A stretch of DNA of 64,000 bases from Spironucleus salmonicida (GCF_000497125.1 NC_090600.1:124001-188000), one strand, 5' to 3'; counted from the stretch's first letter, positions 11,671-52,291 are shown. The notes: generated by a model not told the origin, from the letters alone. Program-made: numbers and translations.

Positions 11671-12501
11671 TCATTTCTTACCTTTTTTGATAAAATACTA
11701 AGCTAGACCCACACCAACTCTGCCAGTTTAAATCAATAGTATATAATGACACCTACAATCCTATTATCAGCAGAGACTACTGGTTCTGAGGTGGGATAGC
11801 ATATGTCACCTTTTTTGTATCCAACGACACAGTCACTACACAGAGGATAACTATCCTTTACGATCTCTGAAAGGTATAATTTACAGAAATTATAAGAATC
11901 TTCCCACAGTTAACTATTTTCAGAACCATTGCAATAGAAAATAGAGATTGCTTCGTACTTGTAATACTTATCAGCAACACTATTTTAGATTTTGTTATCC
12001 ATATTACTTCCATTGTGGTGACACAACTTTTAGACTTACAGTTAATACAAAAAGTAGCGAATGTGCACAAATCGCAGGTAGCATCGTAGGCTACACATTC
12101 CTTCGCAGAAGGATCACATACGTTTTTGTTTCATCTTAGCTCCCCCTGTAGATCGTGCATGCATTAACGACCGCGTTATCAAAAGTTTTGCAGCCTAGTC
12201 GAAAGCCCAGCCATATTTGCATTTTGTGCATGTTTCTCTACCAGTACATTCCCACAATCTTGCACGTAAAATTTGCAAAGTTACACGATTACAAATACAC
12301 CTGCAATGTATTTAACCATGATATATCTGCGCATTAAGTACAATATAGCACAGGAGTTCCGGTCACGCAGGCGTATCCAGATCCCATTCTGACGTAGTCA
12401 GTTTAAGGTTTATATTATACTGAGCATATCCCAATTACTAGACAAAAATTATTTGTGTCATAGTTTTTAATTGAAATAGTAAAGGTGCTGCTTTAAGTCA
12501 T
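11671..12501 (-). pseudogene. degenerate cysteine-rich membrane protein (CRMP) pseudogene
   Basis: CxxC pieces lie in different frames (YCTQCAD; ECTGRETCTKCKYG; CDPSAKEC..CDLCTFATFCINC), followed by a broken TM segment and the basic tail YFIKKGKK TGA. Confidence 0.75.
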
Positions 12502-13414
12502 TTTGAAAATCGACATATAATTTTAATAAAAAGTTTAAACATATATCCTTTTTTGTACCATAGAATTATAATTGAATATATAGAGTTTATTTTTTAATTA
12601 TGATAGACTCATCAATTTTAGGTTATTTCTGATAGTACTCGAAATATTAGGAAAATGTTTATAAAATAATCTTATATTATTTGTATATAATTGATATATA
12701 TGTAAAAATTCCTTTAAGTATATTGCTTTAAACAGTTTTCTTCAATTTATTCATTAATAGTCAATGAAGGCCTATGACTAAAACACAAGTATACTGTTGT
12801 GCTCTACTTGTTGTATATAGATAAATTTCAGTTATTCTTCTTACTTATCAGCAATAAATTTGTAGAAGTATAAATATTGCCAACTATATCTTCAATGTTT
12901 ACTAAATAAATTGAATAATGATTGTATGATAACTGTTTACATAAACATATGAATACATGAAATGTTAATGAAAAAATACTTCTATTTATTTTTCATTATA
13001 ACTAATATATTTGGTTTAAAACTCTAAGAAACTAAAATTGACATCTCAGTGGCAAACTATAATCAGTTATGTGATTTATTAATGTTATTTTCATTTTATG
13101 ACCAATTACTTTTCGTGTATTAAGTAGTTAAGATAAATTTAATAGTTATTATATAATTAAAAAATATATTAGATATAAATATTAATAAATTTAGTATATT
13201 TCTATTATTTTTATAAAACAATAAACTTTATATTCATAATCTTATTACTAACTCCAAACAGTAATTTTTAAATATGAAGTATTCATTATGTATTATATTT
13301 ATATGAATTTCAGTATAAAATCAGGTAAATTAAATTCTGCGTGCTTTTAATTTCTTGATTTTTTTAAGTTTCATTTAATAAATATGTACATTATTTTATA
13401 AGTTTAGTAATGAA

Positions 13415-14284
13415 TCATTTCAGGAGATTTATTTTCGCTTTTCCTATAAAATAGTAGGCTAAACTACCTCCTACTACAGCGCAAAGAGCTAAAATTCCTA
13501 TTACGATTCCAACGATCGCACCACTGCTAATTTTATTATCATTTATCTGCTGCGAAATATAACAATAGGCCCCTATTTGCTCATATCCTGTTTTACAAAA
13601 TAAGCAGTCTCCATCTTTAGTTTAGTCAAAATTATGAAAGCAGGTAGCACATCCGCTATTATCTGCATTACAGGATGCACAATTCTTCCTACCCTCACAG
13701 TAACAGGCAGATGTGAGTCCATCAGAGCACAATATGTTGTTTCCATCTTTACAATACTTTCCATTTACATTTTATAAACAATATTTCTCACAGGTACCAT
13801 TAATTGAATTTAAATTATATTATCTAATGCATTTATAACAAAATATATTATCTGAACATATTTCACAATTTAACTCACATTTAACACATACCTTTTTACC
13901 TGCATCACAGTATCCATTTCCTGTATCTTAACAATCCTTATTGATATTACAGGGCAATTAACATTAATTGCTCTCTTCACTAAAAATGAACCCTTCCGCA
14001 CATTTTTAGCAAGTATCCAGCTAATCACAAAGCAAGCAATTAGAAGAACAACTTTCGCATTCATTTTTAATAAGAAAAGTTCCAGGAAGACATTTTATAC
14101 ACACACCATTTAAACATTGTTTACAATTTTGTACTTCATTTCGTCTGATGCAGTTGCATCCTTATCCTAGAATCATATCATCAGTGCACGGTTTACACTA
14201 TACTTAACGGTTAAGACGTTAAGGGCAAAAATAATTTACATTACAGTTTTAACCAGTATCTGAGCAGTAGCCAGATTCTGTCAT
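13415..14284 (-). CDS. cysteine-rich membrane protein (CRMP1/VSP-like), 289 aa
   Basis: MTESGYCSD...; many CxxC; C-terminal NKISSGAIVGIVIGILALCAVVGGSLAYYF TM segment plus short basic tail. Confidence 0.9.
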
Positions 14285-15181
14285 TTTTGAATTTATTATA
14301 GTTTTCTTAAAAAAATATTAGTTATTTTTGTGAAATTTGAAAAAATATTTTGTGGATTTGATTTATGAATAACAAATATATAATGATATAATTACACTTT
14401 ATCTAATAATTAAGTATATGCAAAATATCTATTCTGATGCTAGTATCTTAAAACTAGTTTTTCATATATATTTATTTGAACTGAAAATAATATATATTCG
14501 TGAAATTTTACCCTATAAACGTTAATACATCTATTTATAGTAATTTATTATCCATTCCACTTATACTGAATATATATTATTATACTATATTTGAAAATCT
14601 AGTATGTAAACTAATAAGTAACTAGATCAATAAATTCCAGAGTATTAATCATTAAATTACCTTATAATATTTTAAAATCTTCCGCCAAAAATATGTTGTA
14701 CATACTGTTTTTATTAATAATTTTTTTTAAATCACTTTTAAATATATTTTAACATCTATAGTAAGGTCTCTTAAAATTAAATGATTAGATTGATATAATA
14801 ATATGAATGTCTATAACACAAATTAGCCATCTTATTATGATAAAGTGATAATAAACGTAATTATTTAAGTTTATAATTGTTAAATTTAATAAATCAATAT
14901 TAATAATTAAAGTATTTACGTAATAATTTATAATTATTTTTTATTATTTATGTTTATTCTACTATTAAATTTTTATTAAAGACTTATGTTATATAATAAA
15001 ATTAAAAAATTTACTTTTCCTATATATTTAATAGTATTTAAAATATTTACTTTTATAGCTTTTGAAAATAAAAATGATAAACATAACTAAAAGATGCAGA
15101 TTATTAATTTATTTTTAATAATATTTATGAAAAATTGTTATTTTAATTTTAATATCCTATAATATATCATGAAATTTAATA

Positions 15182-15569
<388 letters not shown>

Positions 15570-15774
15570 ATTAATAAATAAATAAATATTTTTAAGTTTC
15601 AACTATTTAGCACTAAGTGAATACTATTATAACTATTTATTAAGTAATACTCTATACATTTATAAATTTATCATAATAGCATATGAAATAAGATTCTTAA
15701 ATTTAGGACATATTTTTTAAAAGCTGATAACTAGCCTAAGTATTATTATTTTTTTTCAAAACGAAACTTCATAA

Positions 15775-18255
15775 ATGACATGCCCCTCGGGATAATCGTC
15801 TATTGGAAACAATTGTTACTCTAATGAATGCATCATAGGTAATATTATTTGTGGAGGGCATGGTGAATGTTTAAATGAAAGTAATTCATGTCGTTGCTAA
15901 CATAACTTTGTCGGTCCTTAGTGCACTGACTGCTCAGAGGGGATGGTTATGGTAAATAATAAAACTGAGTGTGCCAACGTATCTTGTGTTATAAAAGACA
16001 CTATTTGCAGTGCAAAAGGCACTTGTGATGGCACCGGAAACAATAAATGTACCTGTTAGACTGACTACTCTGGAAAATTCTGTTAATGTGCACCAGGATA
16101 AAAATAGATAAGCGAAACAAGTACGGAATGTGCAGATGATCTATGCACCTCTCCCAAGGGAGAGTGTTTTGGTCGTGCTAACTGCATACTTAAAAACGAT
16201 GTTTATAAAAAGTAATTCGTCTGCAATGGTTGCGGAGAATTTTTAGGAAATGATCCCGAAAAAGGTTGTACAGGATGTCTACGAGGCTATGGCTACATTT
16301 CCCCGGAATCAGAGTACATTTGTGTGGATGATTTTTGCAGAACCGGTACTACAGAGTGCAACGGGCATGGAAAATGCAGCAAATCTGGTATTTGCAATTG
16401 TAAAGATAACTTTGACTCATTTTCTGTATGCTTATTATGCAAATCAGGGTTTTAAATGGTAGGTGATCAATGTGTTGAAGATTTCTGTACCACAGGCAAA
16501 ACGCAATGCAATGCTCGCGGTACATGTAACCAAGCAACATTATAGTGCAATTGTAGCCCGACGTTTGCCGGAAAATCCTGCGAACTCTGTTCAACCGGCT
16601 TAGTATTTGTTAAAAACAATACCTAGTGCATAAGTTAGGAATGTGTTTTAAACGGAAAAATTTGCAGCGAAAATGGTACCTGTTCTAGTGCGAATAAATG
16701 CATATGCTCGGGAAATGTTTCTGGAAAATACTGTTAGTGCCAGCCAGGCTTCAAGCAAATTAGTAATTCTAGCGCAGAATGTGCTGAATATCTGTGTGGT
16801 GCTTCTGATAATGTATGTTTCGGGCGTTCCACCTGCAAATTACAAGCTGATGTATTTAAGAAAGAATTTGTTTGTGATGGTTGCGGAAAATTTACTGGAA
16901 ATGATCCAAGATAAGGATGCAGTGGTTGCCTCAAAGGCTATCAAATTATCAAGCCATTTGAAGATAAAGTTTGCGTGGACGAATATTGTATCACTGGGGA
17001 TACTGTTTGTTACGGCCACGGAGAATGCAACCGCTCTGGCTTTTGCTCATGTTCAGATAACTTTGACTCCTCGTATAGTTGTTTTTAATGTAAATCAGGG
17101 TATAAACTCATTAATGAACTTTGCCTGTAAGATTTCTGTACAACTGGTAAGACATAGTGTAGCGGGCATGGAATTTGCGATTCTGAAACTCTATAATGCA
17201 GATGTCATTCAAGTTTTTCTGGTAATTCATGTGAAGATTGCGAGGATGGTATGATATTCATTAAGAATAAAACGGAATGCGCGTAACCTAACTGCATTAT
17301 TAATGATACTATATGTAATAATAATGGAATCTGTGTAGGACAATACTATATAAGGTGCTAATGCTAAAATGATACCAGTGGTGATTTCTGTCAATGTCCT
17401 AAGGGCTATTCACAACTTTAGTTTGGTTAACTTTAATGCGGGCTAGATCTTTGTATAACTTCGCAAGAATCATGCTTAGGGCGTGGTAGATGCACACTTA
17501 TAGGCAATGAATTAGTTTGTGATTCTTGTGGAAGTTATAAATTCAATGATCCAAGAAAAGGTTGTGAAGAATGTCTTCCTGGGTCAATTTATTTTGGTTC
17601 TTTAAGAGCTAAAGACTGCAGACCAGAAAAATGTATAACTGGCGACACGATATGTAACTATAAAGGAGTTTGCCAAAGCTCTGGAATCTGCAAATGTACC
17701 GATGACAATGCGGACCCCAATACAGGCTGCAAGTCCTGCCTGGCCAATTATCAGATGTTAAACAACGAATGTATAAACAAAAACTGTATCTATAACAATA
17801 CTGAGTGCGCAGATAAGGGAAAGTGTGAAAACGGAAACTGCGTGTGCCAAACCCATTTAATAGACAACAATACTAAGTGTAGCACATGTAGTTCAGAGAA
17901 TGCACTGATAAACGAATTTTGCACGGTATGTAAACCTGGGTTTGAACTTATTCGTGAATAGTGCGTTATGGCAAAATGTGGAGAAGGATAATTTTTCAAC
18001 TTTGAGATCTTAAGCTGTGAGGAAATTGAATAAAAATAATCGGGCTCCGATAGTGGTTTGGTTGCAGGTATCGTTGTCCTAGCGTTGGTACTAGTAGGAT
18101 TCATCATATTATCAGTATTTTTAATTATCAAGAAAAAGGGAGTCAATACTAGGAGAGATTCTATCGTTATGCCTACCAGAATATAAGAAATTACGCGTTA
18201 ATAGACAAATAGTTCTCAGGGGTTAATAAATGAAGTTCCTTAATATGAGAAGTGA
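15775..18255 (+). CDS. large EGF/CxC-repeat cysteine-rich membrane protein (CRMP2/HCMP-like), 826 aa
   Basis: MTCPSG...; repeated C.G.G.C...C.C....G..C modules in ~219-aa tandem units; TM segment GLVAGIVVLALVLVGFIILSVFLII followed by KKK; ends AAG TGA. Confidence 0.92.
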
Positions 18256-20796
18256 TGGATAATTAGTTTTATTAATTTACAATAAATTATTATAAACTAC
18301 TATATTAGCTTAATTTTACCTTATAATAAATATAATAATCGTGACTTTTCTTCATTAATAGTAACTTTTAGGTAATTATTTATCAAGCTTGTGTTGTAAA
18401 GAAAATTTCTGTGCTATGATGCTTTTGCCTGCCGTTTTTCATATAAAGTAATGTTAATACACTAAATTGTATTTACTTAAACTGTTATTTGTTCAAATAA
18501 ATTAAAATATTAGCCAAAATGTATATATTTTTATTACCCACATTGTTAAAATAATATTAGCCAAGAATATAATCATTTTTTAGCTCTATGAATATATCAG
18601 AAAATTATTTCATAAAATAGTGCATAAATCATTCTCGCAATACTCGAGAAACATAAGTATGCAGTATTGAATACGTTTTAATTATTTATTCTTAATAATT
18701 TTATCTTGATATATAATATATGATTCGACCCTATTAAGAATCGTTTAACATTTTGTTTATTACACAATGTAAACTTACAATATTTTAATAATAAAGTATC
18801 ATATTTACAATAAAACTATCATATTTAGTTTCTAATATATAAATAGTATATAATCTTTAACAAGTATTATTGCTCTTAGAAGTTCTTAAGTTTTTATAAC
18901 TATAATTATAGAAATTACTATTATATCTAATAATAATATTAATGTAACTGGTTTTTAACTAATAAATCCCGTATCTAAGTTTTTATTAAGAATTATACTA
19001 ATATTTTAAGTAGTAAATATTTATTCTTAAATCCATCAATCCACTAAATATATTTACTATAGATATCCATTTTACATATTAAATATAACTAGTATTTCCC
19101 CTCTGATCTTGTTTATAAGAAGCAAAATTAATTTTATAGCTCAATTTCCATGTAGAAGTAATAACTTAAGCACACTATTTAACACAAGTCAAAGTAATTA
19201 TGGTAGCTAAATCATAAACTTGAACGTATTACCAAAAAGTTGACGATTAACATATGTTGATATTAGTATTAGATACTATACATCTATAAAATGCTGTGCC
19301 CCAGTATACTTTCTCTGCTATTTAATAATTTAAGTAGACTAAAAAAGTAAATATGCATAATATCTTATGTTTGTCTTTAATAAAGCTATCTGACGATTAA
19401 AAATAGTTACTGTTATTAGCAAAATTTCTGCAGCCAATCGGGTACAAGTAAAAGTATCTATAAGAATATAAAAATCAAGCATACGTTTATGATATATTGT
19501 AGGAATATATTAGTAATCCTTTAATCTAGTTTGTTATAGTTATAATAGCATTTGGTGTTAAGACTCTTATGTGAAGTATACAGCAAATATATTGTCTAAT
19601 CTGAATTATTAGTATAACTGTAGTTTCCGATTTTACACCTAACTTCTTTTATTGATCAAGTGATAACTGAGTTTTTTAAAGGCAATCTAGTATTTTTATT
19701 GTCTCATCATTATAAATGAATAAGATTTATTACTAATTAGCGTCAATATTACATCTAAAATTATTAATGGTTATATATTATATTATAATAAATTTATATT
19801 AAATTAAGATAATAACGATATTATACCTAAAATTTCAATAACTATGTAAAAATTAAAAAATGGATAGTTAAACGTAAAGGTAGAAATAATACAAAATTAT
19901 AGTTTCAGTATTATCTGTATGGGGAAATAAATATTATAAAACTTATAAATATAACTAGGATTTTTGATCTAAAATAATTTATTGCACATTAGTATGTTTG
20001 TTTGTCTACGTTAATTTCCATTAAAATTTAAATATTGTATTATGTATAAACAATTTTTATAAAAAATATCTACAATTAATACTGAGGTTATTAATATTGT
20101 AAAAACTATATTTAAAATACAATCAGAATAATGATATGTTACCTTTAATTTTCTAATTGAACTAGCAGTTATACTGGTATTTAATTAATGTATTTTAATC
20201 ATTTATACTTACTAGTTATACTACAAGAAGAAACTATAATAAGATCTAAAATATGTCAATAAACGTATTAGAGTAATTATAATATCATATGTTAAGCAAT
20301 TTTATCAGAATTTCAAGTATAAATTAAAATAAATAATTATCTTTACATTTTTTACATAAGATAATGATTTCAATACTAAAATATTTATTGTACAAGTTAA
20401 CTTAATTTAGATTAGAAGCATATTTCTGAAAATTAATATTCTTATTAGTCATTCAACATAAACAATAAGAACATTAATACTTATCTGTTAATTTATGTTT
20501 ATCAATTTAAAGCATCATAGCATTGCGGGTTAATCTTATAATGTGGAATACTAAGTGTTAAGAATAAAATTGATGTTACTATTATTCTAGCTTTTATATT
20601 AAATTAATAAATTATTTTCCCTAAAAACTAACTATTCGATTGCCCTTAAGCGCTTAAAATAAATAAACTTTTATAATAATGAATCATAAATAACCATATG
20701 CTGTGTTCAGCCTTAAATAATGGAAGTGATCTTATCTTATTTACCATACCAAACACCAATTCTTATGAAATTTTTAAATTATTATACTTTTCAACC

Positions 20797-21675
20797 TCAT
20801 TACGCCTCACTCACTAACAGTTTTTTTGCTCTTCTAACCAAATAATAAGCAACTCCGCATCCAACTACCCCTACTACTGCGACTATTCCAATAACAATTC
20901 CAGCAATTGCACCACTACCAATTTTGTTGCTTTCCACTTCTTCAAGTTTCCAGCACAAATCGCCCAATTTTTCATATCCATTAGAACAAGTTTGACATTG
21001 GTCAGTGAGATTCTTTTCTATACCTGGCAGGCAGGTAGCACATTTTTTATTATCAACTGTACAAGTAGCACAATTCAAACTCCCGCCGCACTTACATGCA
21101 GAGTCTATTCCTTCACCGCAGATCGTCGCAACACCTTTTTTGCAGTATTATCCATCCTAAAGATTGTCGCATTTCGGCGTACAGAGACCGCCCAAAGTGG
21201 TTGTTTTATTCATAGAATCACAGGCGTTGCATATTTCCACTGAAGAACACAGTTAGCAGCCGGGTGGACACGCCGAACATGACTTTGTTTAACCGTTACA
21301 GATACGATAATTTATATCTTAGCAGTCTTTGTTAGACTCGCAACTCATCTCGCACTATTATGTTAATGCATTAAGCACATAGTTGTCGGCACACTATATG
21401 CAAGATTATTCCTAAAAACAGTGAATGCAACCTTTTGGGCACAGCTTGCACCGTGAATCTGAGTAGTAAGAACCCTTTAGGCATCTTGCGCAGGTGCCTC
21501 CATTGCATTCTTTGCAGTTTACGTTTACTTACCCAGCTTTACAGTAGCATCCCTGGCCTAGAATAATATTATCAGTGCACGGTAAACATGGGACTTGATT
21601 AGAATCTAGTGCAGGGCAGAATTGGTCAATGTTACAAGTAGGTTTATCTTTGGAACATGTTTGCACAGCAGCCAT
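20797..21675 (-). CDS. cysteine-rich membrane protein (CRMP1/VSP-like), 292 aa
   Basis: MAAVQTCSKDKPTC...; CxxC repeats; NKIGSGAIAGIVIGIVAVVGVVGCGVAYYLV-RRAKK tail; TAA (Gln) then TGA. Confidence 0.92.
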
Positions 21676-22859
21676 TTTTAGATGAAATATGATAATCGAT
21701 GATATTAAAGCAATTCTTTCTTTAAGTATTGTGTGCAGTTTTTTAATATGGAAACTAGCTTTGGTGGCTAATATGATAATTTTGTTATTAGAAAAAATAA
21801 TATAATCAAAAGTTTAAGACAAAAATAGAATATTACTATTTAATTAATGCATAATTTAATATAATTTATAATTTTGATAACCTATTATATAATAATGTAT
21901 AAGTTAACCAGAATACAAATGAGTTCGACAGCATGCTCATTTGGGCAGCAGTCTTAGCTATTTAAACCCTAAAAATAATAGTGCACTATAAGTCTCAGTG
22001 TCATAAACATGCACAGCTTATTTTATATAAAGTTGCATCATACCAGTTCCTCTTTCTATAAGCAAATAAGTTATCGATCGATTTAATGATAACCTTATAT
22101 TTATGGTGTCATAAATATCATTACTATTCCACAAAAGCTATGCTTTATTTAACGTTAGTAGATTGCCAAAATATTCATATGATGAAATGTTTAAAAATAA
22201 AGAGGTAGCATACTTGCAAGTTTTAAGGAACTAATTATTCATATTCCTCAAATTTACTAATATAATATATTAATCTTTATGTTATTGAAGCTACTCTAAT
22301 ATGATTTTATTCTATAGTCCTAATTTACTTTATTTAATTCAATCACTATTACTAAAGTAGTATAGTTACAATTGTCAATATGAAGGGTTTATTAACATTT
22401 TGAAGCATATGTCACAAATTACCAAGTTAACTTAATAATATTAATGAAATATAGTTATTAATATAATTAAAAATAAATTAATATAAGACTATGTATATCA
22501 TTGTTAGTTCAATTATTAAGAATACAAATATAATTATAATTGACATAATAATATTACATATATAAATCAAAATTAATGTATAAATACATTGAAACAATTC
22601 ATATATCCCGAAAAACATCTTAAATTTATAATTAAGTACCGTATACAGTCTTATACTATCAAATCTAGATTTTATCAATAATAATTATATGGTATATATA
22701 GTGTTATAATGTAACTATGACGATTCTATAGTAAATTGCATACTCGGTTATAACTTGATAATAACAGGATATATCTTAAAAAATATTCTAGTTTTTCTTA
22801 AAATATATAATCAATATTTATATTATTTATTAGGATAATTAATTATATTTTTTACAAGA

Positions 22860-23306
22860 ATGTCAGGTGGTGGTAAGTGTAGAAACACTTTTAACTAATG
22901 CAAAGCGGATTACTTTTGTCCAGATTTTGAAACTACATCGACAGTGGATTGTGTCCCTTGTGCAGAGATCACTCCAGCCCACAAAGGTTGCAACTGTGTA
23001 AATAGTGTGATATCTTAAAATTGTAAATCTTGCGTAAACTAGGTGTGTGCCTCATGTTTGGATGGGTTTAACTTCGTATCGGAATCAAACACTTGCGTGA
23101 AAAGTGGAGACCCCAATCCTCCTCCTGTTCCTCCCCCAGGACCAGTCGATCCTTCAGATCCAGGTACCACAGAAGAATCAAACAAGCTCAGTGGTGGCGC
23201 TATAGCTGGTATAATCGTAAGTGTTATAGCCGTTGGTGGGGCTGTGGGTGGCGGTTTAGCTTACTACTTTATTAGAAAGTCTAAGCTTGCAATAGCTAGA
23301 TAGTGA
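22860..23306 (+). CDS. short CRMP1-type membrane protein with Pro-rich stalk, 148 aa
   Basis: MSGGGKCRN...; short Cys-rich head, [20 protein letters not shown] linker, [14 protein letters not shown] segment, YYFIRKSK tail; TAG TGA. Confidence 0.88.
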
Positions 23307-24324: not shown

Positions 24325-24831
24325 TCACTCGCAAATTATAGCCTAAATAATTGAATTCACGTTCAAATTAGATTACCCACTTTGTTTTTCAGCATCAAAA
24401 ATATTTTATATGACACTATTTTTAATATTTAAACTGTCTGAGTTTCTAGAATTTGTTAATTCCTCAACCTCTAAGGAAAGTTCCTAAATGATCTAATTTT
24501 GTTCACATATTTTGCTGCTCTGGAGTGCAATTGTATCGATATATTATGTCGCCGCATACATGTTTTGGTCCAAAATATTTGTGTCAGCCTAAACTTTAAG
24601 TCTAAAATCATTATCTAACTGGTTTATTATTGCACATAAAGTATCTTTGAGAAACTAATTTTCCGTTTCCAGAGACGTTATGGATAGTTATTTTTTGACA
24701 TTTTCAGCTTTTAGTTCTTTTAGGTTATTTCTAAGGGCGACTTAATCGTTATAGTATTTTCTTAGGAGCACACTGGTTTCAACGGTGGTTAGTTAGGCTG
24801 TCTCGATTGATATGCTATGATTTTGATCCAT
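24325..24831 (-). CDS. coiled-coil hypothetical protein, 168 aa
   Basis: MDQNHSISIET...LKELKAENVKKQ...; ends GAG TGA. Confidence 0.7.
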
Positions 24832-38994: not shown

Positions 38995-39058
38995 AATTAT
39001 ATTATTATATAATATAAATTAATTATTCTCAAAACCCTGTTCTACCACTTCCAAACTA

Positions 39059-41821
39059 ATGAGTGATAATGAATCATCGTAGGATATAGTAAAAGAAAAT
39101 AGTTAACCTAAAAAGAAAGCGAATTAATTTTTGATTATTTGGCGTCAGTATCTAACTATGTTGCGTAAAGATTTCATCGTAACGTACCGTCATCCAATTT
39201 TACTTGCCCTTGAAATACTCGTGCCAGCATTTCTTTTCCTCAGTATCTGTGACGATCGTTTCCGTGTTAAAGGTCTTGTTGCGAGCTATCCAATGACAAA
39301 TCTTACCCAATTCAATATAGACCAGAAAATATTAGGATATTATTTCCCAGATAATGCTACTATTTTTGAAAAGATGGAACTCACGAAATTAATGGAAGAG
39401 ATGGCTCTGATGTATACCCCTGCACTAGATAACACCTAACTTCTTGCTCTTGGGAATGTGGATGATGCCCAAAAAGCTGTTCTCGCTTGTTAAGATTGCT
39501 TCTGGGCTGTTTTTTCTGCAAAGATAAATTCAATCACTCAAGTATCAATAGATTACAACTTCAGAGTCCACGAATAATTCATTATCGATTAAGAGGTAGG
39601 TCGCAACAAAGATCGACTCTGGGATGCATAAGTCGCCCAAAATATGATAGAATTCGCTATAATGAATTACTTAGCCAAAGAATCTTCTATTGAGTAAATA
39701 AAGCCTATAAGCTAATATAGTAATTAATTTGGATTTTAAAAGCTCCCGGATGTCGAATATTTTAACCCGAGCGGAATTTATAATAAAGTCGCGTCAGGTG
39801 CTCCTGTTGTCCTTGGCATCTCTTGCCTTTTTTCATTTTTCGCATTTTCATTCAGTATTGTATCTGAAAAATAGATGAAACTCCGCTAAAGTCTTCATAC
39901 CGTAGGACTCCGTGATTCTGCATTCTGGCTTAGCCAGTTTACAATAGCAATTGGTCTTTCTTTTTGCTAATCATTTTTGCTTAATATTATTGGGAGAATT
40001 TCAGGGTATGTATACTTTAAATACACTGATTTTGGTATTAATTTTGTTATCATTTGGTTTTTCTTTTTGGCGTCACATACCTTTGCATTCCTAATAGCTT
40101 CAATTGTAACACATATTAAGGTACTCTCATTCGTCATATTTATTGCTTTTGTGGGATTTTTCGTTATTGGAACGCTTTGCACAAATCATTTAAAGATATA
40201 TCCCCCATTTGCACAATTTTCAGGTTGGTAAGTATTCTTTTTATCTCACGTAAGCTAAGCAATGTTTTTGGTATCTTTAAAATCTTTGCCATTTATAGAT
40301 AAATATCTTCCCACAACGCCTCCTGGATTCACTTGGTATGACTCGGTTCATTACACTGGTGCGTGTGAAGGAAATCCTTGCAACCCTGATTCATATGATA
40401 GTGGAAGAACTGTAGCTTTTTCAATTGGAATGCTCATAATCTGTATTATTGTACAGACAATTTTGGCCGCCTATATTGATTTAATTACACCATCTGCACA
40501 CGGTTCTAGATTGCCAATTTATGGACCTTTTTCACCGGAATTTTGGGGGGTTTCTAAAACACCCCCTCCACCAGCTTCACATTATCCGACCTATAAACGA
40601 AAAGCCGATTTAACATAATGGGACAAAGATGTTCGTACTGAATCTAGAAAGATATTATCCCCTTTAGGTTCTGCTGATTTCAACTCGATCAAAGATTCTG
40701 CAATTATAATTTATGATTTAAATGTTATTTTCAAAGGATTTAAAGATACAAAGCATGCAGTAAACCAGCTGTCATTTGCAATGCCTAAAAATTAAGTAGT
40801 TGGACTACTTGGTGCTAATGGAGCAGGAAAATCGACTACACTTTCAGTTCTCACAGGATCTCTTAAGGCAACTTCTGGGGAAGTTTAAATTTTGGGATAT
40901 TCGACAACATCATAACGTCGTCAGATATCAGAATTGCTTGGATACGCACCATAATTTGATGTTCTTTGGCCAGATCTTTCACCAGCTGAACATATTAGTA
41001 TTTTTGCTAATCTTAGAGGTTTAACTTATGAAGAAGAAATAAAATCAATAAAGCTTGCCAGAACTGCAGCGTTTAGAGCTGGTCTAGCTTAAATGGAGGA
41101 TGAAGAAGAAAGTAATGCTAGTGAAGGTAATGGTCTTTTGAAGAAATTATCTAAAAAAGAAGCTTTAGCAAAATTAACACAACTAAGACTATAAGATGTG
41201 GGACTATATGATGCACAAGACGTCAAATCTGTATCCCTTTCAGGCGGTATGAGAAGACGTCTAACACTGTGTTTAGCTTTAGTTGGTAACCCTCCGATCC
41301 TTATGTTAGATGAAATTTCAACTGGTCTAGATCCTATCTCACGTAGAAAGATATGGGATGTTATTTTAAGAGCTAAAACAGACCGCTCTGTACTTCTGAC
41401 AACACATTCAATGGAAGAATGTGATACACTTTCTGATCGCATTGCTGTCATGGCTCACGGAATTTTGCGTTGCATTGGAAGTTCTGCGCATTTAAAAACA
41501 AGATATGGAATGGGTTATAGAATCGATATTTCTTGTGAATTTGATCCAATTTCTGGAGTTTCTGATGTATTAAGAGTACGAGATGAATTAGTGAAAAAAT
41601 ATATGCCTGAAGCTATTTTAGTTGGTCGTACAGGAGGTCATTTAACATTAGCAGTTGCCCGAACTGTTGAATTTTAGCGTTTGTAAGAATTTTTAAAATA
41701 GGTTGAGACATCAGATTTGGTAAAAGGTTGGGGCATACGCTAAACTACCCTAGAAGAAGTGTTTTTGGCTATTAATAGACATGCTGATAAGCTGGAGATG
41801 ATCAAAGGTGTTATGAAGTGA
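39059..41821 (+). CDS. ABC transporter, subfamily A, half-size (one TMD plus one NBD), 920 aa
   Basis: QYLTMLRKDF..R.P...LEIL.P, IVSEKQMKLRQSL..VGL, GLLGANGAGKST, LSGGMRRRL, LDE.STGLDP, LTTHSMEECD. Confidence 0.93.
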
Positions 41822-42142
41822 ACAATTTGGGGGTTTATGAATGGTATGCTATACCATAAATACAGTAATTAAATAATGAATGCAATTTTTAAATTTAAAA
41901 CAGGATCATAGCATAGTATAATTATTTAGTCTCAAAATATAATCTAAATTAGCAGTCTAATTCTGATTTACTGTCGTTTAAATCTCTAAATAATCGTTTT
42001 AACGTTATACTGCATTTGTAAATCATTATTTTTATTATAGCAAATAATTTGATTATAGGATTTATCTGCTATGTTATACGTTCGTTATACTTTTTATTTA
42101 AGAACACTATTTCTTTCCTATTTATTATAATACTACTATACT

Positions 42143-42551
42143 TCACTTCGGTAATGCTAATTTAGATTTTCTAATGAAATAGTAAGCTAAACCACCATCA
42201 ATAACATCCATTATCCAACAACACTAACTGGGATACCTGTTATTGTACCTCCACTAAGCTTGTTAGGTTACAGTGGAGTACGATTAGACCGATCAACAAT
42301 ATCTACTTTTTCAAACATATGTTTTTGGTTGCATTGAAGTTAAACCCATCCAAACATGAGGCACACACCTAGTTTACGCAAGATTTACAATTTTAAGATA
42401 TCACACTATTTACACAGTTGCAACCTTTGTGGGCTGGAGTGATCTCTGCACAAGGGACACAATCCACTGTCGATGTAGTTTCAAAATCTGGACAAAAGTA
42501 ATCAGCTTTGCATTAGTTAAAAGAATTTCTACACTTACCACCACCTGACAT
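42143..42551 (-). pseudogene. frameshifted paralogue of the short CRMP at 22860-23306
   Basis: The 5' 216 bp are near-identical to 22860-23075, then diverge. NKLSGGTITG and [20 protein letters not shown] are out of frame with the ATG (span 409 nt), and the ATG frame hits an earlier TGA. Confidence 0.8.
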
Positions 42552-43752
42552 TCTTGTAAAAAATATAATTAATTATCCTAATAAATAATATAAATATTGA
42601 TTATATATTTTAAGAAAAACTAGAATATTTTTTAAGATATATCCTGTTATTATCAAGTTATAACCGAGTATGCAATTTACTATAGAATCGTCATAGTTAC
42701 ATTATAACACTATATATACCATATAATTATTATTGATAAAATCTAGATTTGATAGTATAAGACTGTATACGGTACTTAATTATAAATTTAAGATGTTTTT
42801 CGGGATATATGAATTGTTTCAATGTATTTATACATTAATTTTGATTTATATATGTAATATTATTCTTTCAATTATAATTATATTTGTATTCTTAATAATT
42901 GAACTAACAATGATATACATAGTCTTATATTAATTTATTTTTAATTATATTAATAACTATATTTCATTAATATTATTAAGTTAACTAGGTAATTTGTGAC
43001 ATATGCTTCAAAATGTTAATAAACCCTTCATATTGACAATTGTAACTATACTACTTTAGTAATAGTGATTGAATTAAATAAAGTAAATTAGGACTATAGA
43101 ATAAAATCATATTAGAGTAGCTTCAATAACATAAAGATTAATATATTATATTAGTAAATTTGAGGAATATGAATAATTAGTTCCTTAAAACTTGCAAGTA
43201 TGCTACCTCTTTATTTTTAAACATTTCATCATATGAATATTTTGGCAATCTACTAACGTTAAATAAAGCATAGCTTTTGTGGAATAGTAATGATATTTAT
43301 GACACCATAAATATAAGGTTATCATTAAATCGATCGATAACTTATTTGCTTATAGAAAGAGGAACTGGTATGATGCAACTTTATATAAAATAAGCTGTGC
43401 ATGTTTATGACACTGAGACTTATAGTGCACTATTATTTTTACGGTTTAAATAGCTAAGACTGCTGCCCAAATGAGCATGCTGTCGAACTCATTTGTATTC
43501 TGGTTAACTTATACATTATTATATAATAGGTTATCAAAATTATAAATTATATTAAATTATAAATTATATTAAATTATGCATTAATTAAATAGTAATATTC
43601 TATTTTTGTCTTAAACTTTTGATTATATTATTTTTTCTAATAACAAAATTATCATATTAGCCACCAAAGCTAGTTTCCATATTAAAAAACTGCACACAAT
43701 ACTTAAAGAAAGAATTGCTTTAATATCATCGATTATCATATTTCATCTAAAA

Positions 43753-44631
43753 ATGGCTGCTGTGCAAACATGTTCCAAAGATAAACCTACTTGTAACATT
43801 GACCAATTCTGCCCTGCACTAGATTCTAATCAAGTCCCATGTTTACCGTGCACTGATAATATTATTCTAGGTCAGGGATGCTACTGTGATGAGGACTATT
43901 TAATCGAAAACTGCAAAGAATGCAATGGAGGCAACTGCGCAAGATGCCTAAAGGGTTCTTACTACTCAGATTCACGGTGCAAGCTGTGTCCAAAAGGTTG
44001 CATTGACTGCTTTGAGGAATAATCTTGCATATAGTGTGCCGACAACTATGTGCTTAATGCATTAACATAATAGTGCGAGATGAGTTGCGAGTCTAACAAA
44101 GACTGCTAAGACGTAAATTATCGTCTCTGTAACGGTTAAACAAAGTCATGTTCGGCGTGTCCACCCGGCTGCTAACTGTGTTCTTCAGTAGAAATATGCA
44201 ACGCTTGTGATTCTATGAATAAAACAACCACCTTGAACGGTCTCTGTACGCCGAAATGTGATAATCTTTAGGATGGATAATACTGCAAAAATGGTGTTGA
44301 GAAGATCTGCGGTGAAGGAATAGACTCTGCATGTAAGTGCGGTGAGAGTTTGAATTGTGCTACTTGTACAGTTGATAATAAAAAATGTGCTACCTGCCTG
44401 CCAGGTATAGAAAAGAATCTCAACGACCAATGTCAGACTTGTTCTAATGGATATGAAAAATTGGGCGATTTGTGCTGGAAACTTGAAGAAGTGGAAAGCA
44501 ACAAAATTGGTAGTGGTGCAATTGCTGGAATTGTTATTGGAATAGTCGCAGTAGTAGGGGTAGTTGGATGCGGAGTTGCTTATTATTTGGTTAGAAGAGC
44601 AAAAAAACTGTTAGTGAGTGAGGCGTAATGA
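43753..44631 (+). CDS. CRMP1/VSP-like protein, 292 aa (variant copy of 20797-21675)
   Basis: Same length, TM segment and RRAKK tail; clustered ectodomain substitutions. Confidence 0.92.
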
Positions 44632-47171
44632 GGTTGAAAAGTATAATAATTTAAAAATTTCATAAGAATTGGTGTTTGGTATGGTAAATAAGATAAGATC
44701 ACTTCCATTATTTAAGGCTGAACACAGCATATGGTTATTTATGATTCATTATTATAAAAGTTTATTTATTTTGAGCGCTTAAGGGTAATCAAATAGTTAG
44801 TTTTTAGTGAAAATAATTTATTAATTTAATATAAAAGCTAGAATAATAGTAACATCAATTTTATTCTTAACACTTAGTATTCCACAGTATAAGATTAACC
44901 CGCAATGCTATGATGCTTTAAATTGATAAGCATAAATTAACAGATAAGTATTAATGTTCTTATTGTTTATGTTGAATGACTAATAATAATATTAATTTTC
45001 AGAAATATGCTTCTAATCTAAATTAAATTAACTTGTACAATAAATATTTTAGTATTGAAATCATTATCTTATGTAAAAAATGTAAAGATAATTGTTTATT
45101 TTAATTTATACTTGAAATTCTGATAAAATTGCTTAACATATGATATTATAATTACTCTAATACGTTTATTGACATATTTTAGATCTTATTATAGTTTCTT
45201 CTTGTAGTATAACTAGTAAGTATAAATGATTAAAATACATTAATTAAATACCAGTATAACTGCTAGTTCAATTAGAAAATTAAAGGTAACATATCATTAT
45301 TCTGATTGTATTTTAAATATAGTTTTTACAATATTAATAACCTCAGTATTAATTGTAGATATTTTTTATAAAAATTGTTTATACATAATACAATATTTAA
45401 ATTTTAATGGAAATTAACGTAGACAAACAAACATACTAATGTGCAATAAATTATTTTAGATCAAAAATCCTAGTTATATTTATAAGTTTTATAATATTTA
45501 TTTCCCCATACAGATAATACTGAAACTATAATTTTGTATTATTTCTACCTTTACGTTTAACTATCCATTTTTTAATTTTTACATAGTTATTGAAATTTTA
45601 GGTATAGTATCATTATTATCTTAATTGAATATAAATTTATTATAATATAATATATAACCATTAATAATTTTAGATATAATATTGACGCTAATTAGTAATA
45701 AATCTTATTCATTTATAATGATGAGACAATGAAAATACTAGATTGCCTTTAAAAAACTCAGTTATCACTTGATCAATAAAAGAAGTTAGGTGTAAAATCG
45801 GAAACTATAGTTATACTAATAATTCAGATTAGACAATATATTTGCTGTATACTTCACATAAGAGTCTTAACACCAAATGCTATTATAACTATAACAAACT
45901 AGATTAAAGGATTACTAATATATTCCTACAATATATCATAAACGTATGCTTGATTTTTATATTCTTATAGATACTTTTACTTGTACCCGATTGGCTGCAG
46001 AAATTTTGCTAATAACAGTAACTATTTTTAATCGTCAGATAGCTTTATTAAAGACAAACATAAGATATTATGCATATTTACTTTTTTAGTCTACTTAAAT
46101 TATTAAATAGCAGAGAAAGTATACTGGGGCACAGCATTTTATAGATGTATAGTATCTAATACTAATATCAACATATGTTAATCGTCAACTTTTTGGTAAT
46201 ACGTTCAAGTTTATGATTTAGCTACCATAATTACTTTGACTTGTGCTAAATAGTGTGCTTAAGTTATTACTTCTACATGGAAATTGAGCTATAAAATTAA
46301 TTTTGCTTCTTATAAACAAGATCAGAGGAGAAATACTAGTTATATTTAATATGTAAAATGTATATCTATAGTAAATATACTTAGTGGGTTGATGGATTTA
46401 AGAATAAATATTTACTACTTAAAATATTAGTATAATCTTAATAAAAACTTAGATACGGGATTTATTAGTTAAAAACCAGTTACATTAATATTATTATTAG
46501 ATATAATAGTAATTTCTATAATTATAGTTATAAAAACTTAAGAACTTCTAAGAGCAATAATACTTGTTAAAGATTATATACTATTTATATATTAGAAACT
46601 AAATATGATAGTTTTATTGTAAATATGATACTTTATTATTAAAATATTGTAAGTTTACATTGTGTAATAAACAAAATGTTAAACGATTCTTAATAGGGTC
46701 GAATCATATATTATATAACAAGATAAAATTATTAAGAATAAATAATTAAAACGTATTCAATACTGCATACTTATGTTTCTCGAGTATTGCGAGAATGATT
46801 TATGCACTATTTTATGAAATAATTTTCTGATATATTCATAGAGCTAAAAAATGATTATATTCTTGGCTAATATTATTTTAACAATGTGGATAATAAAAAT
46901 ATATACATTTTGGCTAATATTTTAATTTATTTGAACAAATAACAGTTTAAGTAAATACAATTTAGTGTATTAACATTACTTTATATGAAAAACGGCAGGC
47001 AAAAGCATTATAGCACAGAAATTTTCTTTACAATACAAGCTTGATAAATAATTACCTAAAAGTTACTATTAATGAAGAAAAGTCACGATTATTATATTTA
47101 TTATAAGGTAAAATTAAACTAATATAGTAGTTTATAATAATTTATTGTAAATTAATAAAACTAATTATCCA

Positions 47172-48995
47172 TCACTTCGCATATTAAGGAACTTAATTTA
47201 TTAACCCCTGAGAACTATTTGCCTATTAACGCGTAATTTCTTATATTCTGGTAGGCATAACGATAGAATCTCTCCTAGTATTGACTCCCTTTTTCTTGAT
47301 AATTAAAAATACTGATAATATGATGAATCCTACTAGTACCAACGCTAGGACAACGATTCCTGCAACCAAACCGCTATCGGAGCCCAATTATTTTTATTCA
47401 ATTTCCTCACATCTTAGGATCTCAAAGTTGAACAATTATCCTTCTTCACATTTTGCCATAACGCACTATTCGCGAATAAGTTCAAACCCAGGTTTACATA
47501 CCGTGCAAAATTCGTTTATCAGTGCATTCTCTGAACTACATGTGCTACACTTAGTATTGTTGTCTATTAAATGGGTTTGGCACACGCAGTTTCCGTTTTC
47601 ACACTTTCCCTTATCTGCGCACTCAGTATTGTTATAGATACAGTTTTTGTTTATACATTCGTTGTTTAACATCTGATAATTGGCCAGGCAGGACTTGCAG
47701 CCTGTATTGGGGTCCGCATTGTCATCGGTACATTTGCAGATTCCAGAGCTTTGGCAAACTCCTTTATAGTTACATATCGTGTCGCCAGTTATACATTTTT
47801 CTGGTCTGCAGTCTTTAGCTATTAAAGAACCAAAATAAATTGACCCAGGAAGACATTCTTCACATCCTTTTCTTGGATCATTGAATTTATAACTTCCACA
47901 AGAATCACAAACTAATTCATTGCCTATAAGTTTACATCTACCACGCCCTAAGCATGATTCTTGCGAAGTTATACAAAGATCTAGCCCGCATTAAAGTTAA
48001 CCAAACTAAAGTTGTGAATAGCCCTTAGGGCATTAACAGAAAAGACCACTAGTATCATTTTAGCATTAGCACCTTATATAGTATTGTCCTACACAAATTC
48101 CATTATTATTACATATGGAATTATTAGAAATACATTCAGGATACCCGCATTCCGTTTCATTCTTAAGGAATATCATATTATCCTCGCAATTTTAACATGA
48201 ATTACCAGAAAAAGTTGAATGACATCTGCATTATAGAGTGTCAGAATCGCAAGTTCCATGCCCGCTACACTATGTCTTACCAGTTGTACAGAAATCTTAC
48301 AGGCAAATTTCATTAATGAGTTTATACCCTGATTCACATTAAAAACAACTATACGAGGAGTCAAAGTTACCTGAACATGAGCAAAAGCCAGAGCGGTTGC
48401 ATTCTCCGTGGCCGTAACAAACAGTATCCCCAGTGATACAATATTCGTCCACGCAAACTTTATCTTCAAATGGCTTGATAATTTGATAGCCTTTGAGGCA
48501 ACCACTGCATCCTTATCTTGGATCATTTCCAGTAAATTTTCCGCAACCATCACAAACAAATTCTCTCTTAAATACATCAGCTTGTAATTTGCAGGTGGAA
48601 CGCCCGAAACATACATTATCAGAAGCACCACACAGATATTCAGCACATTCTGCACTAGAATTACTAATTTGCTTGAAACCGGGCTGGCACTAACAGTATT
48701 TTCCAGAAACATTTCCCGAGCATATGCATTTATTCGCACTAGAACATGTACCATTGTCGCTGCAAATAGTGTCTTTTATCACACAAGATGCGTTAGCACA
48801 CTCAGTTTTATTATTTACCATAACCATCCCCTCTGAGCATTCAGTGCACTAACGGCCGGTAAAGTCATGGTAGCAACGACATGAATTACTTTCATTTAAA
48901 CATTCACCATGTCCTCCACAAATAATATTACCTATGATACATTCATTAGAGTAACACTAGCTTCCAATAGACGATTATCCCTAGGGGCACGTCAT
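47172..48995 (-). CDS. CRMP2-like protein, 607 aa (copy of 15775-18255 lacking one 219-aa unit)
   Basis: ATG at 48995, TGA at 47172; junction IKDTICSDNGTCSSANKC joins the left-copy sequences at 16003 and 16660. Confidence 0.9.
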
Positions 48996-50108
48996 TTATG
49001 AAGTTTCGTTTTGAAAAAAATAATAATACTTAGGTTAGTTATCAGCTTTTAAAAAATATTTCCTAAATTTAAGAATCTTATTTCATATGCTATTATGGTA
49101 AATTTATAAATATATAGAGTATTACGTAATAAATAGTTATAATAGTATTCAGTTAGTGCTAAATAGTTGAAACTTAAAAATATTTATTTGATTAATACTT
49201 ATTATTATTTATTAAATCTCATGATATATTATAGGATATTAAAATTAAAATAACAATTTGTCATAAATATTATTAAAAATAAATTAATAATCTGCATCTT
49301 TTAGTTATGTTTATTATTTTTATTTTCAAAAGCTATAAAAGTAAATATTTTAAATACTATTAAAGATATAGGAAAAGTAAATTTTTTAATTTTATTATAT
49401 AACATAAGTCTTTAATAAAAATTTAATAGTAGAATAAACATAAATAATAAAAAATAATTATAAATTATTACGTAAATACTTTAATTATTAATATTGATTT
49501 ATTAAATTTAACAATTATAAACTTAAATAATTACGTTTATTATCACTTTATCATAATAAGATGGCTAATTTGTGTTATAGACATTCATATTATTATACCA
49601 ATCTAATCATTTAATTTTAAGAGACCTTACTATAGATGTTAAAATATATTTAAAAGTGATTAAAAAAAAATTATTAATAAAAACAGTATGTACAACATAT
49701 TTTTGGCGGAAGATTTTAAAATATTATAAGGTAATTTAATGATTAATACTCTAGAATTTATTGATCTATTTACATATTAGTTTACATACTAGATTTTCAA
49801 ATATAGTATAATAATATATATATTCAGTATACGTGGAATGGATAATAAATTACTATAAATAGATGTATTAACGTTTATAGGGTAAAATTTCACGAATATA
49901 TATTATTTTCAGTTCAAATAAATATATATGAAAAACTAGTTTTAAGATACTAGCATCAGAATAGATATTTTGCATATACTTAATTATTAGATAAAGTGTA
50001 ATTATATCATTATATATTTGTTATTCATAAATCAAATCCACAAAATATTTTTTCAAATTTCACAAAAATAACTAATATTTTTTTAAGAAAACTATAATAA
50101 ATTCAAAA

Positions 50109-50978
50109 ATGACAGAATCTGGCTACTGCTCAGATACTGGTTAAAACTGTAATGTAAATTATTTTTGCCCTTAACGTCTTAACCGTTAAGTATAGTGTAA
50201 ACCGTGCACTGATGATATGATTCTAGGATAAGGATGCAACTGCATCAGACGAAATGAAGTACAAAATTGTAAACAATGTTTAAATGGTGTGTGTATAAAA
50301 TGTCTTCCTGGAACTTTTCTTATTAAAAATGAATGCGAAAGTTGTTCTTCTAATTGCTTGCTTTGTGATTAGCTGGATACTTGCTAAAAATGTGCGGAAG
50401 GGTTCATTTTTAGTGAAGAGAGCAATTAATGTTAATTGCCCTGTAATATCAATAAGGATTGTTAAGATACAGGAAATGGATACTGTGATGCAGGTAAAAA
50501 GGTATGTGTTAAATGTGAGTTAAATTGTGAAATATGTTCAGATAATATATTTTGTTATAAATGCATTAGATAATATAATTTAAATTCAATTAATGGTACC
50601 TGTGAGAAATATTGTTTATAAAATGTAAATGGAAAGTATTGTAAAGATGGAAACAACATATTGTGCTCTGATGGACTCACATCTGCCTGTTACTGTGAGG
50701 GTAGGAAGAATTGTGCATCCTGTAATGCAGATAATAGCGGATGTGCTACCTGCTTTCATAATTTTGACTAAACTAAAGATGGAGACTGCTTATTTTGTAA
50801 AACAGGATATGAGCAAATAGGGGCCTATTGTTATATTTCGCAGCAGATCAATGATAATAAAATTAGCAGTGGTGCGATCGTTGGAATCGTAATAGGAATT
50901 TTAGCTCTTTGCGCTGTAGTAGGAGGTAGTTTAGCTTACTATTTTATAGGAAAAGCGAAAATAAATCTCCTGAAATGA
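50109..50978 (+). CDS. CRMP1/VSP-like protein, 289 aa (near-identical copy of 13415-14284)
   Basis: Fully translated with no TGA; the only differences I spotted are synonymous. Confidence 0.9.
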
Positions 50979-51891
50979 TTCATTACTAAACTTATAAAAT
51001 AATGTACATATTTATTAAATGAAACTTAAAAAAATCAAGAAATTAAAAGCACGCAGAATTTAATTTACCTGATTTTATACTGAAATTCATATAAATATAA
51101 TACATAATGAATACTTCATATTTAAAAATTACTGTTTGGAGTTAGTAATAAGATTATGAATATAAAGTTTATTGTTTTATAAAAATAATAGAAATATACT
51201 AAATTTATTAATATTTATATCTAATATATTTTTTAATTATATAATAACTATTAAATTTATCTTAACTACTTAATACACGAAAAGTAATTGGTCATAAAAT
51301 GAAAATAACATTAATAAATCACATAACTGATTATAGTTTGCCACTGAGATGTCAATTTTAGTTTCTTAGAGTTTTAAACCAAATATATTAGTTATAATGA
51401 AAAATAAATAGAAGTATTTTTTCATTAACATTTCATGTATTCATATGTTTATGTAAACAGTTATCATACAATCATTATTCAATTTATTTAGTAAACATTG
51501 AAGATATAGTTGGCAATATTTATACTTCTGCAAATTTATTGCTGATAAGTAAGAAGAATAACTGAAATTTATCTATATACAACAAGTAGAGCACAACAGT
51601 ATACTTGTGTTTTAGTCATAGGCCTTCATTGACTATTAATGAATAAATTAAAGAAAACTGTTTAAAGCAATATACTTAAAGGAATTTTTACATATATATC
51701 AATTATATACAAATAATATAAGATTATTTTATAAACATTTTCCTAATATTTCGAGTACTATCAGAAATAACCTAAAATTGATGAGTCTATCATAATTAAA
51801 AAATAAACTCTATATATTCAATTATAATTCTATGGTACAAAAAAGGATATATGTTTAAACTTTTTATTAAAATTATATGTCGATTTTCAAA

Positions 51892-52291
51892 ATGACTTAA
51901 AGCAGCACCTTTACTATTTCAATTAAAAACTATGACACAAATAATTTTTGTCTAGTAATTGGGATATGCTCAGTATAATATAAACCTTAAACTGACTACG
52001 TCAGAATGGGATCTGGATACGCCTGCGTGACCGGAACTCCTGTGCTATATTGTACTTAATGCGCAGATATATCATGGTTAAATACATTGCAGGTGTATTT
52101 GTAATCGTGTAACTTTGCAAATTTTACGTGCAAGATTGTGGGAATGTACTGGTAGAGAAACATGCACAAAATGCAAATATGGCTGGGCTTTCGACTAGGC
52201 TGCAAAACTTTTGATAACGCGGTCGTTAATGCATGCACGATCTACAGGGGGAGCTAAGATGAAACAAAAACGTATGTGATCCTTCTGCGAA
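51892..52291 (+). pseudogene. 5' fragment of the CRMP pseudogene (copy of 12102-12501)
   Basis: Matches the left copy up to ...GATCCTTCTGCGAA, then switches to unrelated sequence. Confidence 0.8.

Follow-up and report, generated by a model that had tools for sequence, protein, structure and literature searches.

The DNA analyzed here is a window of 64,000 nucleotides from Spironucleus salmonicida (GCF_000497125.1, NC_090600.1:124001-188000; positions are counted from its first letter), and its subject is a pair of long inverted repeats that carry genes for cysteine-rich membrane proteins (CRMPs) and flank a single-copy block of housekeeping genes. Self-BLAST of the window confirmed this inverted repeat as two opposite-strand blocks, 12102-15207 against 52291-49184 (99.36% identity) and 16642-23075 against 48785-42336 (97.83%), both of which fall under the duplication rule (≥2 kb, ≥95%) of PMC9509377; apart from a TAA run and an internal module of the middle gene, self-BLAST found no further long repeats in the window. 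Arm A (12102..23075, plus strand; 10,974 bp) and arm B (42336..52291, minus strand; 9,956 bp), each with 27% GC, enclose a single-copy spacer of 19,260 bp (23076..42335). The arms differ by 154 substitutions in 9,914 ungapped columns (1.55%) and by two insertions found in arm A only, a (TAA)133 microsatellite and a 657-bp module; identical runs between them extend up to 1,016 bp. The initial annotation had described 12102-23075 as the reverse complement of 42336-52291 and had proposed a self-comparison as a check; the inverted copies are borne out, the exactness of the complement is not. Open reading frames of at least 150 amino acids number 3 in the window under the standard code and 107 under translation table 6 (TAA, TAG = Gln); no tRNA genes were found in the window. 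All 10 window proteins looked up have database entries, on a single contig.

From the outside in, each arm carries a CRMP1-like pseudogene, CRMP-a, a tenascin/EGF-like gene, CRMP-b, and a short CRMP gene, represented by its 5′ part. The pseudogene of arm A (11671..12501, minus strand) contains frameshifts and stops, has a tail ending in KKGKK, and crosses the outer end of the arm; its counterpart in arm B (51892..52291, plus strand) is a 5′ part cut at the outer end, 52291. Although non-functional, the shared pseudogene piece shows no A/B differences over 641 bp (12102-12742). CRMP-a (13415..14284, minus strand, in arm A; 50109..50978, plus strand, in arm B) encodes identical proteins of 289 amino acids with 12 CxxC motifs and a C-terminal hydrophobic helix, without a KKxKK motif; the two copies differ at two synonymous positions. 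The tenascin/EGF-like gene encodes a cysteine-rich membrane protein of 826 amino acids in arm A (15775..18255, plus strand) and of 607 amino acids in arm B (47172..48995, minus strand), where it is shorter by one module; this module of 657 bp (219 amino acids), present in arm A only, lies at 16003..16659 (plus strand). The (TAA)133 microsatellite (15177..15577, plus strand) is located ca. 200 bp upstream of the arm A gene; with its length taken from the window sequence, it would read in code 6 as in-frame poly-Gln, and it may represent a fragile site or a promoter difference. A 1150-amino-acid poly-Gln reading frame at 14803-18255 was rejected as a read-through of this TAA run under code 6; the recorded protein begins at 15775. 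CRMP-b (20797..21675, minus strand, in arm A; 43753..44631, plus strand, in arm B) encodes 292 amino acids in both arms, with 93.8% protein identity and 34 base differences between the copies. Within it, a dense micro-patch (21520-21540 against 43888-43908) changes all seven residues of codons 46-52, and no donor for this patch was found among 9 aligned paralogues; upstream of it, a 17-bp unit is repeated 3.2 times in arm B (43537-43590), with one unit fewer in arm A. The short CRMP gene of arm A (22860..23306, plus strand; 148 amino acids) is intact and crosses the inner end of the arm; in arm B (42143..42551, minus strand), a near-identical 5′ part (3 differences in 216 bp) is followed by a homologous tail, which is degenerate and carries frameshifts. 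As cassettes the two arms are not equivalent: an intact short CRMP is found in arm A alone.

CRMPs have been defined by at least three CxxC or CxC motifs plus a transmembrane helix at the C terminus, with an additional [KR][KR]x[KR][KR] motif in CRMP1 and none in CRMP2 (PMC3916229). By this rule, CRMP-b is a CRMP1 in both arms (RRAKK), as its 2014 counterpart was named; CRMP-a, the short CRMP and the tenascin-like gene are not, and CRMP-a, the short CRMP of arm A and, by the letter of the rule, the tenascin-like gene fall into CRMP2, transmembrane calls on CRMP-type proteins being based on a hydropathy scan only. The 2014 counterpart of the short CRMP was entered as CRMP2 (PMC6397501, supplementary file 3). 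The middle gene matches Pfam EGF_2 and is EGF/tenascin-like, and its 2014 counterpart was named Tenascin (EST44478.1). The initial annotation of three intact CRMP genes per arm is corrected for this middle gene, and that of partial CRMP genes at the arm ends for the inner gene, intact to 23306 in arm A and running into a frameshifted tail in arm B, and for the outer gene, a frameshifted pseudogene that is cut at 52291 in arm B. Variant-specific surface proteins (VSPs) of Giardia are marked by a C-terminal CRGKA and by surface expression that switches and is mutually exclusive; the arm proteins lack the CRGKA tail and do not qualify as VSPs, and a sub-threshold Pfam VSP match was obtained for one of five CRMP-type proteins scanned.

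The spacer contains genes for a leucine-rich-repeat protein (24842..25456, plus strand; start codon not settled), a SEY1/RHD3 GTPase (26128..28695, minus strand; start codon not settled), a PepD-type M20 dipeptidase (29328..30821, plus strand), an AAA ATPase with weak PCH2/TRIP13 resemblance (30832..31812, minus strand), isoleucyl-tRNA synthetase (IleRS; 33043..36273, minus strand), a small Myb-domain protein (36620..36952, plus strand), a Gln/Glu-rich protein without Pfam match (37150..38994, plus strand), and an ABC-A type transporter (39059..41821, plus strand). The annotation of SEY1, PepD, IleRS and ABCA is borne out by Pfam, with which the 2014 annotation of SEY1, PepD and ABCA concurs; genes also exist where PCH2 and Myb had been placed, with Pfam matches below the cut-off (TRIP13 lid, E 0.0012; Myb, E 2e-4, the latter also in the 2014 annotation). 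In the 2014 annotation (PMC6397501, supplementary file 3), the spacer has the same set and order of genes, and IleRS is the only row so annotated among the gene-table rows listed. Pfam identifies a DEAH-box helicase (9128..10951, minus strand) as left flank marker and elongation factor 2 (EF2; 53055..55580, plus strand) as right flank marker. Just outside arm B, 52292-52520, a unique, GC-richer (46%) stretch with a minus-strand open frame, may be what remains of a gene that the repeat has cut; in a weak test, no homologue of 52293-52511 was found among 13 candidate longer proteins. Beside EF2 lies a 1,473-amino-acid open reading frame (56449-60870) without Pfam match; the 2014 table has three hypothetical proteins between EF2 and a methylase, and gene boundaries here may differ.

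The possibility, named in the initial annotation, that two allelic haplotypes of one cluster were mis-joined on either side of the spacer is scarcely credible in view of the contig data. Four of eight listed runs were compared over 37001-57000; X1 and X4 are DNA-type, derive from one sample and may represent the source sample, and X5 and X6, no listed run being recorded as RNA, were treated as RNA-type by guess, so that bins without cover in them are not read as silence. Summed contig depth, used as a pattern and not as calibrated copy number, was 11.7 (X1) and 164.6 (X4) in the spacer and 11.5 and 168.1 in the right flank, compared to 16-22 and 258-359 on shared arm contigs and 10.9 and 135.3 on arm-specific contigs. 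The median arm/spacer ratio is 1.85 in X1 and 1.77 in X4, with shared arm contigs at about twofold depth, whereas a ratio close to 1 would be expected from mis-joined alleles. In X4, one contig of 19,320 bases covers the spacer (19,260) and a further 30 bases at either end; a joint corresponding to the A-type inner junction was found in 4/4 runs, with a short side of 30 letters in DNA-type and 36 in RNA-type runs; and the loose end at 52291 in X4 is the outer flank of arm A over the 30 letters shown. The variant letters listed (40 of 127 found) are all arm-A alleles, the proteins of both inner junctions have been recorded, the EukProt source included, and the reported allelic heterozygosity of 0.09% (PMC9509377) is far below the 1.55% between the arms. 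For an artefact speaks that no record spans an arm, unique contigs entering the arms by 30 letters, below the 31-letter bridging rule, and that the 2014 assembly had one collapsed copy of the inner genes. Two of its proteins, P0007 and P0024, are A/B patchworks with several switches each; residue H537 of P0007 occurs in neither copy and is obtained by a base-by-base mix of both codons, and the two proteins are probably collapsed consensus sequences rather than real recombinants. Published expression values for P0007 and P0024 would pool both arm copies. Mosaic DNA contigs, with A-type letters at 16/28 sites in X1 (44457-47357) and at 2/22 in X4 (44304-46360), were not accepted as a sign of recombination, since the alleles differ between X1 and X4 although both derive from the same sample, as bubble collapse would give.

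The divergence between the arms is patchy. In segments with boundaries chosen by eye, it amounts to 0.16% at the outer end (12102-14560; 4/2459), 1.6% in the next stretch as far as the TAA run, 5.6% in the interval that separates the large insertions (23/412), 0-5.8% along the tenascin-like gene (peak segment 32/550), 0.86% at 18419-20991, 6.0% inside CRMP-b (34/565), and 0.46% at the inner end (21557-23075; 7/1519). Non-coding DNA upstream of the tenascin-like gene belongs to the divergence peak as well (6/184). The contigs likewise show the outer block as near-identical, with 1-2 other letters in 2.2-2.5 kb, so that polishing is not the cause. Clustering was evaluated by a boundary-free, Sawyer-type permutation of silent columns, with the sum of squared runs as statistic and 5000 shuffles. 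The observed clustering was reached by 0/5000 shuffles with all silent sites included (72 of 6,561 differ; P<0.0002), again by 0/5000 for G/C-bearing silent sites (65/1,446), and with P=0.0016 for non-coding G/C-bearing sites alone. At four-fold sites of the two larger genes, 17/300 differ, against 3.6 expected from base-class-matched non-coding rates (P 2e-7). CRMP-b has a pN/pS ratio of 0.47 and the tenascin-like gene one of 0.49-0.56; positive selection on the arm genes was rejected, with pN/pS below 1 in all of them. Intragenic conversion from the neighboring module was likewise rejected as a source of the differences in the tenascin-like gene; sites where A, B or neither copy matches the module occur in similar numbers. 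Polarized on 9 paralogues, the 18 amino acid differences of CRMP-b comprise 5 A-like changes, 6 B-like changes and 7 ties. Non-coding differences occur at 34/942 columns where one copy has G or C versus 4/3,668 A/T-only columns, a concentration that suggests a strong mutation bias at G/C.

Homology between the arms continues past the inner end of the repeat. The tails of the short CRMP genes align with 133 identities and 56 mismatches (ca. 70%), and their alignment score of 143 compares to a mean of 27 and a maximum of 60 in 300 shuffles; no similarity was found beyond the stop codons of these tails or beyond the outer ends. The arm B tail is nearer to the arm A tail (93/126) than to other CRMP tails of the window (77/118 and 76/122). 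Homologue searches, limited to proteins of similar length with shared exact 5-residue words, returned for the short CRMP only its own two copies, and no close third copy of CRMP-b; the next relatives of CRMP-b, 8 matches besides CRMP-b itself, are 43-45% identical and include named S. salmonicida CRMP1 and CRMP2 proteins.

The sequence of the locus is best explained, with fair probability, as an inverted segmental duplication of a CRMP cluster that is less recent than an identity of 98% would suggest and that has been overwritten piecemeal by arm-to-arm gene conversion; the gene conversion locus that the initial annotation had offered as a candidate is supported by the patchy silent divergence and by the old homology past the inner end. 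A small CRMP cluster would have been duplicated in inverted orientation 19 kb apart on the same chromosome, and non-allelic conversion between the arms, during ordinary homologous repair, would then have overwritten them in patches. The youngest tracts would cover both ends of the repeat; one recent tract may have stopped within the short CRMP gene, leaving the old tail of arm B as a pseudogene. A lower rate of conversion would apply to the DNA that separates or adjoins the two large insertions and to the interior of the two larger genes. Large indels act as known blocks to conversion, and divergence peaks between converted duplicates can be left by selection (PMC3924837). A crossover during a conversion event would invert the spacer as a by-product. 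The inverted layout would have been kept since recombination between direct copies would delete IleRS; with IleRS the sole row so annotated among those listed, such a deletion is probably lethal, and an inverted copy could survive without design. The suggestion that the layout protects essential genes is not needed, as purifying selection against deletions would suffice for survival around IleRS. We infer conversion as the cause, the age order of the tracts and this survival argument. As a separate observation, divergence is lowest at the two ends of the repeat, where simple edge decay would make it highest; this could mean outward growth by conversion tracts. Such growth is familiar from plastid inverted repeats.

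Several points weigh against conversion. It is deduced from one sequence pair in a single genome, and patches would be left as well by a stepwise duplication or by the import of a haplotype that is lost or foreign; homologue searches detect only proteins that share exact 5-residue words and have similar length. The longest-run statistic of the permutation test is weaker (P 0.003-0.04) and for all silent sites only modest (P=0.04). GC-biased conversion was rejected, with no signal in the arm comparison: the G/C allele is found 69 times in A and 59 times in B, without bias, four-fold GC is 0.23-0.32 in the arms versus 0.16-0.40 in single-copy genes, and the arms at 27% GC are not enriched relative to the 30-32% around them. 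Duplicated regions of the S. salmonicida genome average 44.7% GC (PMC9509377); unlike these, the arms show no enrichment, and conversion here would therefore not have been long or intense.

The lack of GC enrichment also fits a single recent or stepwise duplication without later conversion, in which successive extensions, a divergent haplotype or faster mutation in transcribed genes would account for the patches, as do the sharp, non-homologous outer end of arm B that cuts the pseudogene and the dense micro-patch at codons 46-52 of CRMP-b. This account is somewhat unlikely: the old sister tail would have to sit exactly at the inner end of arm B by chance, low divergence at the ends and high divergence in the middle need at least two events, a donor paralogue was not found, and non-coding DNA is part of the divergence peak. 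The repeat could also be the footprint of one inversion whose breaks were staggered, with duplication of the breakpoint region, a model known from Drosophila, where inverted copies are expected at both ends of a single-copy block and where the cut outer end of one arm would find a place; yet this model predicts uniform rather than patchy divergence and one novel inner junction, whereas both inner ends run into homologous tails, so that it appears very improbable.

Inversion of the spacer by arm crossover is possible in principle, and recurrent inversion would add to the conversion account rather than replace it. Conversion-linked crossovers would re-invert the 19-kb spacer over evolutionary time and leave both orientations among isolates, as in the flip/flop (FF) region of Saccharomyces chromosome XIV, whose anatomy is very similar; identical runs up to 1,016 bp and the signs of conversion agree with such an unlikely polymorphism. 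Against it, no second orientation has been seen, crossover resolution is rare in the human palindrome P6 (PMC3723533), and the yeast FF region was stable over ca. 53,800 mitoses (PMC9731477). Nothing shows that the block flips or that antigens switch, and short-read contigs cannot give orientation, as stated for yeast as well (PMC9731477). The 2014 order, SEY1 ... ABC, short CRMP B, CRMP1, Tenascin, EF2, is that of the window; with a collapsed arm and 3-kb mates this point carries little weight, and together with the NheI map and the pure RNA-type contigs it makes three weak points for one orientation. The NheI map predicted from the window sequence would tell the spacer isomers apart, and an optical map aligns well with an assembly that may be that of the window (PMC9509377). 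The RNA-type contigs of the tenascin-like gene are A type at 47/47 and 48/48 sites, and one low-depth CRMP-b contig is B type at 34/34 sites; no recombinant haplotype was found in this one study, in contigs that drop rare variants and would miss minor recombinants. A stronger version, which we regard as rather improbable, would have a recurrently inverting, conversion-active locus where crossovers flip the IleRS block and make chimeric tenascin-like or CRMP1 proteins and where selection keeps two versions; the divergence islands would then resist conversion, each arm would supply different expressed members, and flips would occur among isolates or nuclei.

A programmed antigen switch, in which regulated inversion or crossover brings CRMP variants to an expression site as in Ogataea polymorpha, is most improbable. 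The surface-type genes in the arms, the stress regulation of the 2014 counterparts (log2 change of 3.4 and 4.4 for Tenascin, and of 4.1 for CRMP1 without antioxidants) and a 19-kb spacer as in Ogataea (PMC5720833), a match in size that is coincidence, would accommodate it. The variant genes lie in the arms and not at the spacer ends, however, so that by geometry most of them would keep their position in a flip; the RNA-type contigs, each of pure haplotype at all the sites given above, show no single active arm, with A-type tenascin-like gene and short CRMP and B-type CRMP-b (one study); no recombinase family was found by Pfam among 57 open reading frames scanned; and the pN/pS values of 0.47-0.56 give no sign of diversifying selection. 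On the question of position-dependent silencing, the contigs give A alleles of two genes and B alleles of one, as presence only. The joint occurrence of A-type tenascin-like (15775-18255) and B-type CRMP-b (43753-44631) sequences hints at reciprocal copy use in this study. Antigenic variation by CRMPs is unproven (PMC3916229, PMC6397501). The initial view of two exchangeable copies of an antigen cassette is therefore overstated, considering also that the arms differ in gene integrity and length and that recombinant haplotypes are absent from the RNA-type contigs.

Any variation or regulation of CRMP surface proteins in S. salmonicida would have to do without RNA interference (PMC3916229). Of its genome, 19.2% is duplicated (≥2 kb, ≥95%), and CRMP regions are gene-poor, with gene conversion suggested there (PMC9509377); the arms, at 27% GC, depart from the 44.7% average of these duplicated regions. 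No description of the locus was found in the literature, PMC9509377 being judged on its text; its circular plot may show the repeat. As it stands, the locus adds one case to the many duplications that make up 19% of the genome, and its layout is of a kind known from yeast. Its two phased, distinguishable cluster copies with 154 marker sites would make conversion, crossover and copy-specific expression readable in long-read and RNA-read data; chimeric genes or a second orientation, if they were found, would represent a recombination route to surface variation in S. salmonicida.

Inverted cysteine-rich surface genes of diplomonads with abrupt ends of identity are also found as vsp pairs in Giardia intestinalis and G. 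muris, and recombination among vsp family members and duplications anchored at gene families have been described in Giardia (PMC2996952, PMC7641422). These pairs are single identical genes 2-4 kb apart (PMC2996952, PMC7641422), unlike the Spironucleus locus, where each arm has four genes, housekeeping genes occupy the 19 kb in between, and the copies have diverged; only the CRMP-a proteins are identical, their genes lie 36 kb apart, and the CRMPs of Spironucleus are at most candidate variant antigens. Ogataea polymorpha shares inverted repeats around a 19-kb block, which are recombined there by general homologous repair; in Ogataea, the arms are identical, the switched genes located inside the block, one end silenced by a centromere, and the flip induced by a signal (PMC5720833). 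In Spironucleus, the alternative genes are not inside the inverted block; the CRMP variants occupy the arms and housekeeping genes the spacer. The human Y palindrome P6 shows arm-to-arm conversion with multi-kilobase tracts, as proposed for the Spironucleus repeat, and differs in having arms more than 99.9% identical, a GC bias, and documented, rare inversions (PMC3723533).

The closest analogue appears to be the Saccharomyces chromosome XIV FF region, with gene-bearing arms of 4.2 kb and 97.6% identity around 24 kb and 15 genes (PMC9731477). Both loci have long, gene-bearing inverted repeats of ca. 98% identity that include coding and intergenic DNA and enclose 19-24 kb of single-copy genes; in both, short-read assemblies collapse the arms to double depth, and conversion is proposed as the homogenizing force (PMC9731477). 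Both orientations and homogenization across species have been demonstrated only in yeast, where the region was repeatedly re-inverted through conversion and yet is stable in the laboratory (PMC9731477). The Spironucleus locus stands apart in its 10-11 kb, patchy arms, its surface-type genes, its two large insertions and its pseudogenized gene end; by its sequence, it would work like an inverted duplication maintained by conversion.

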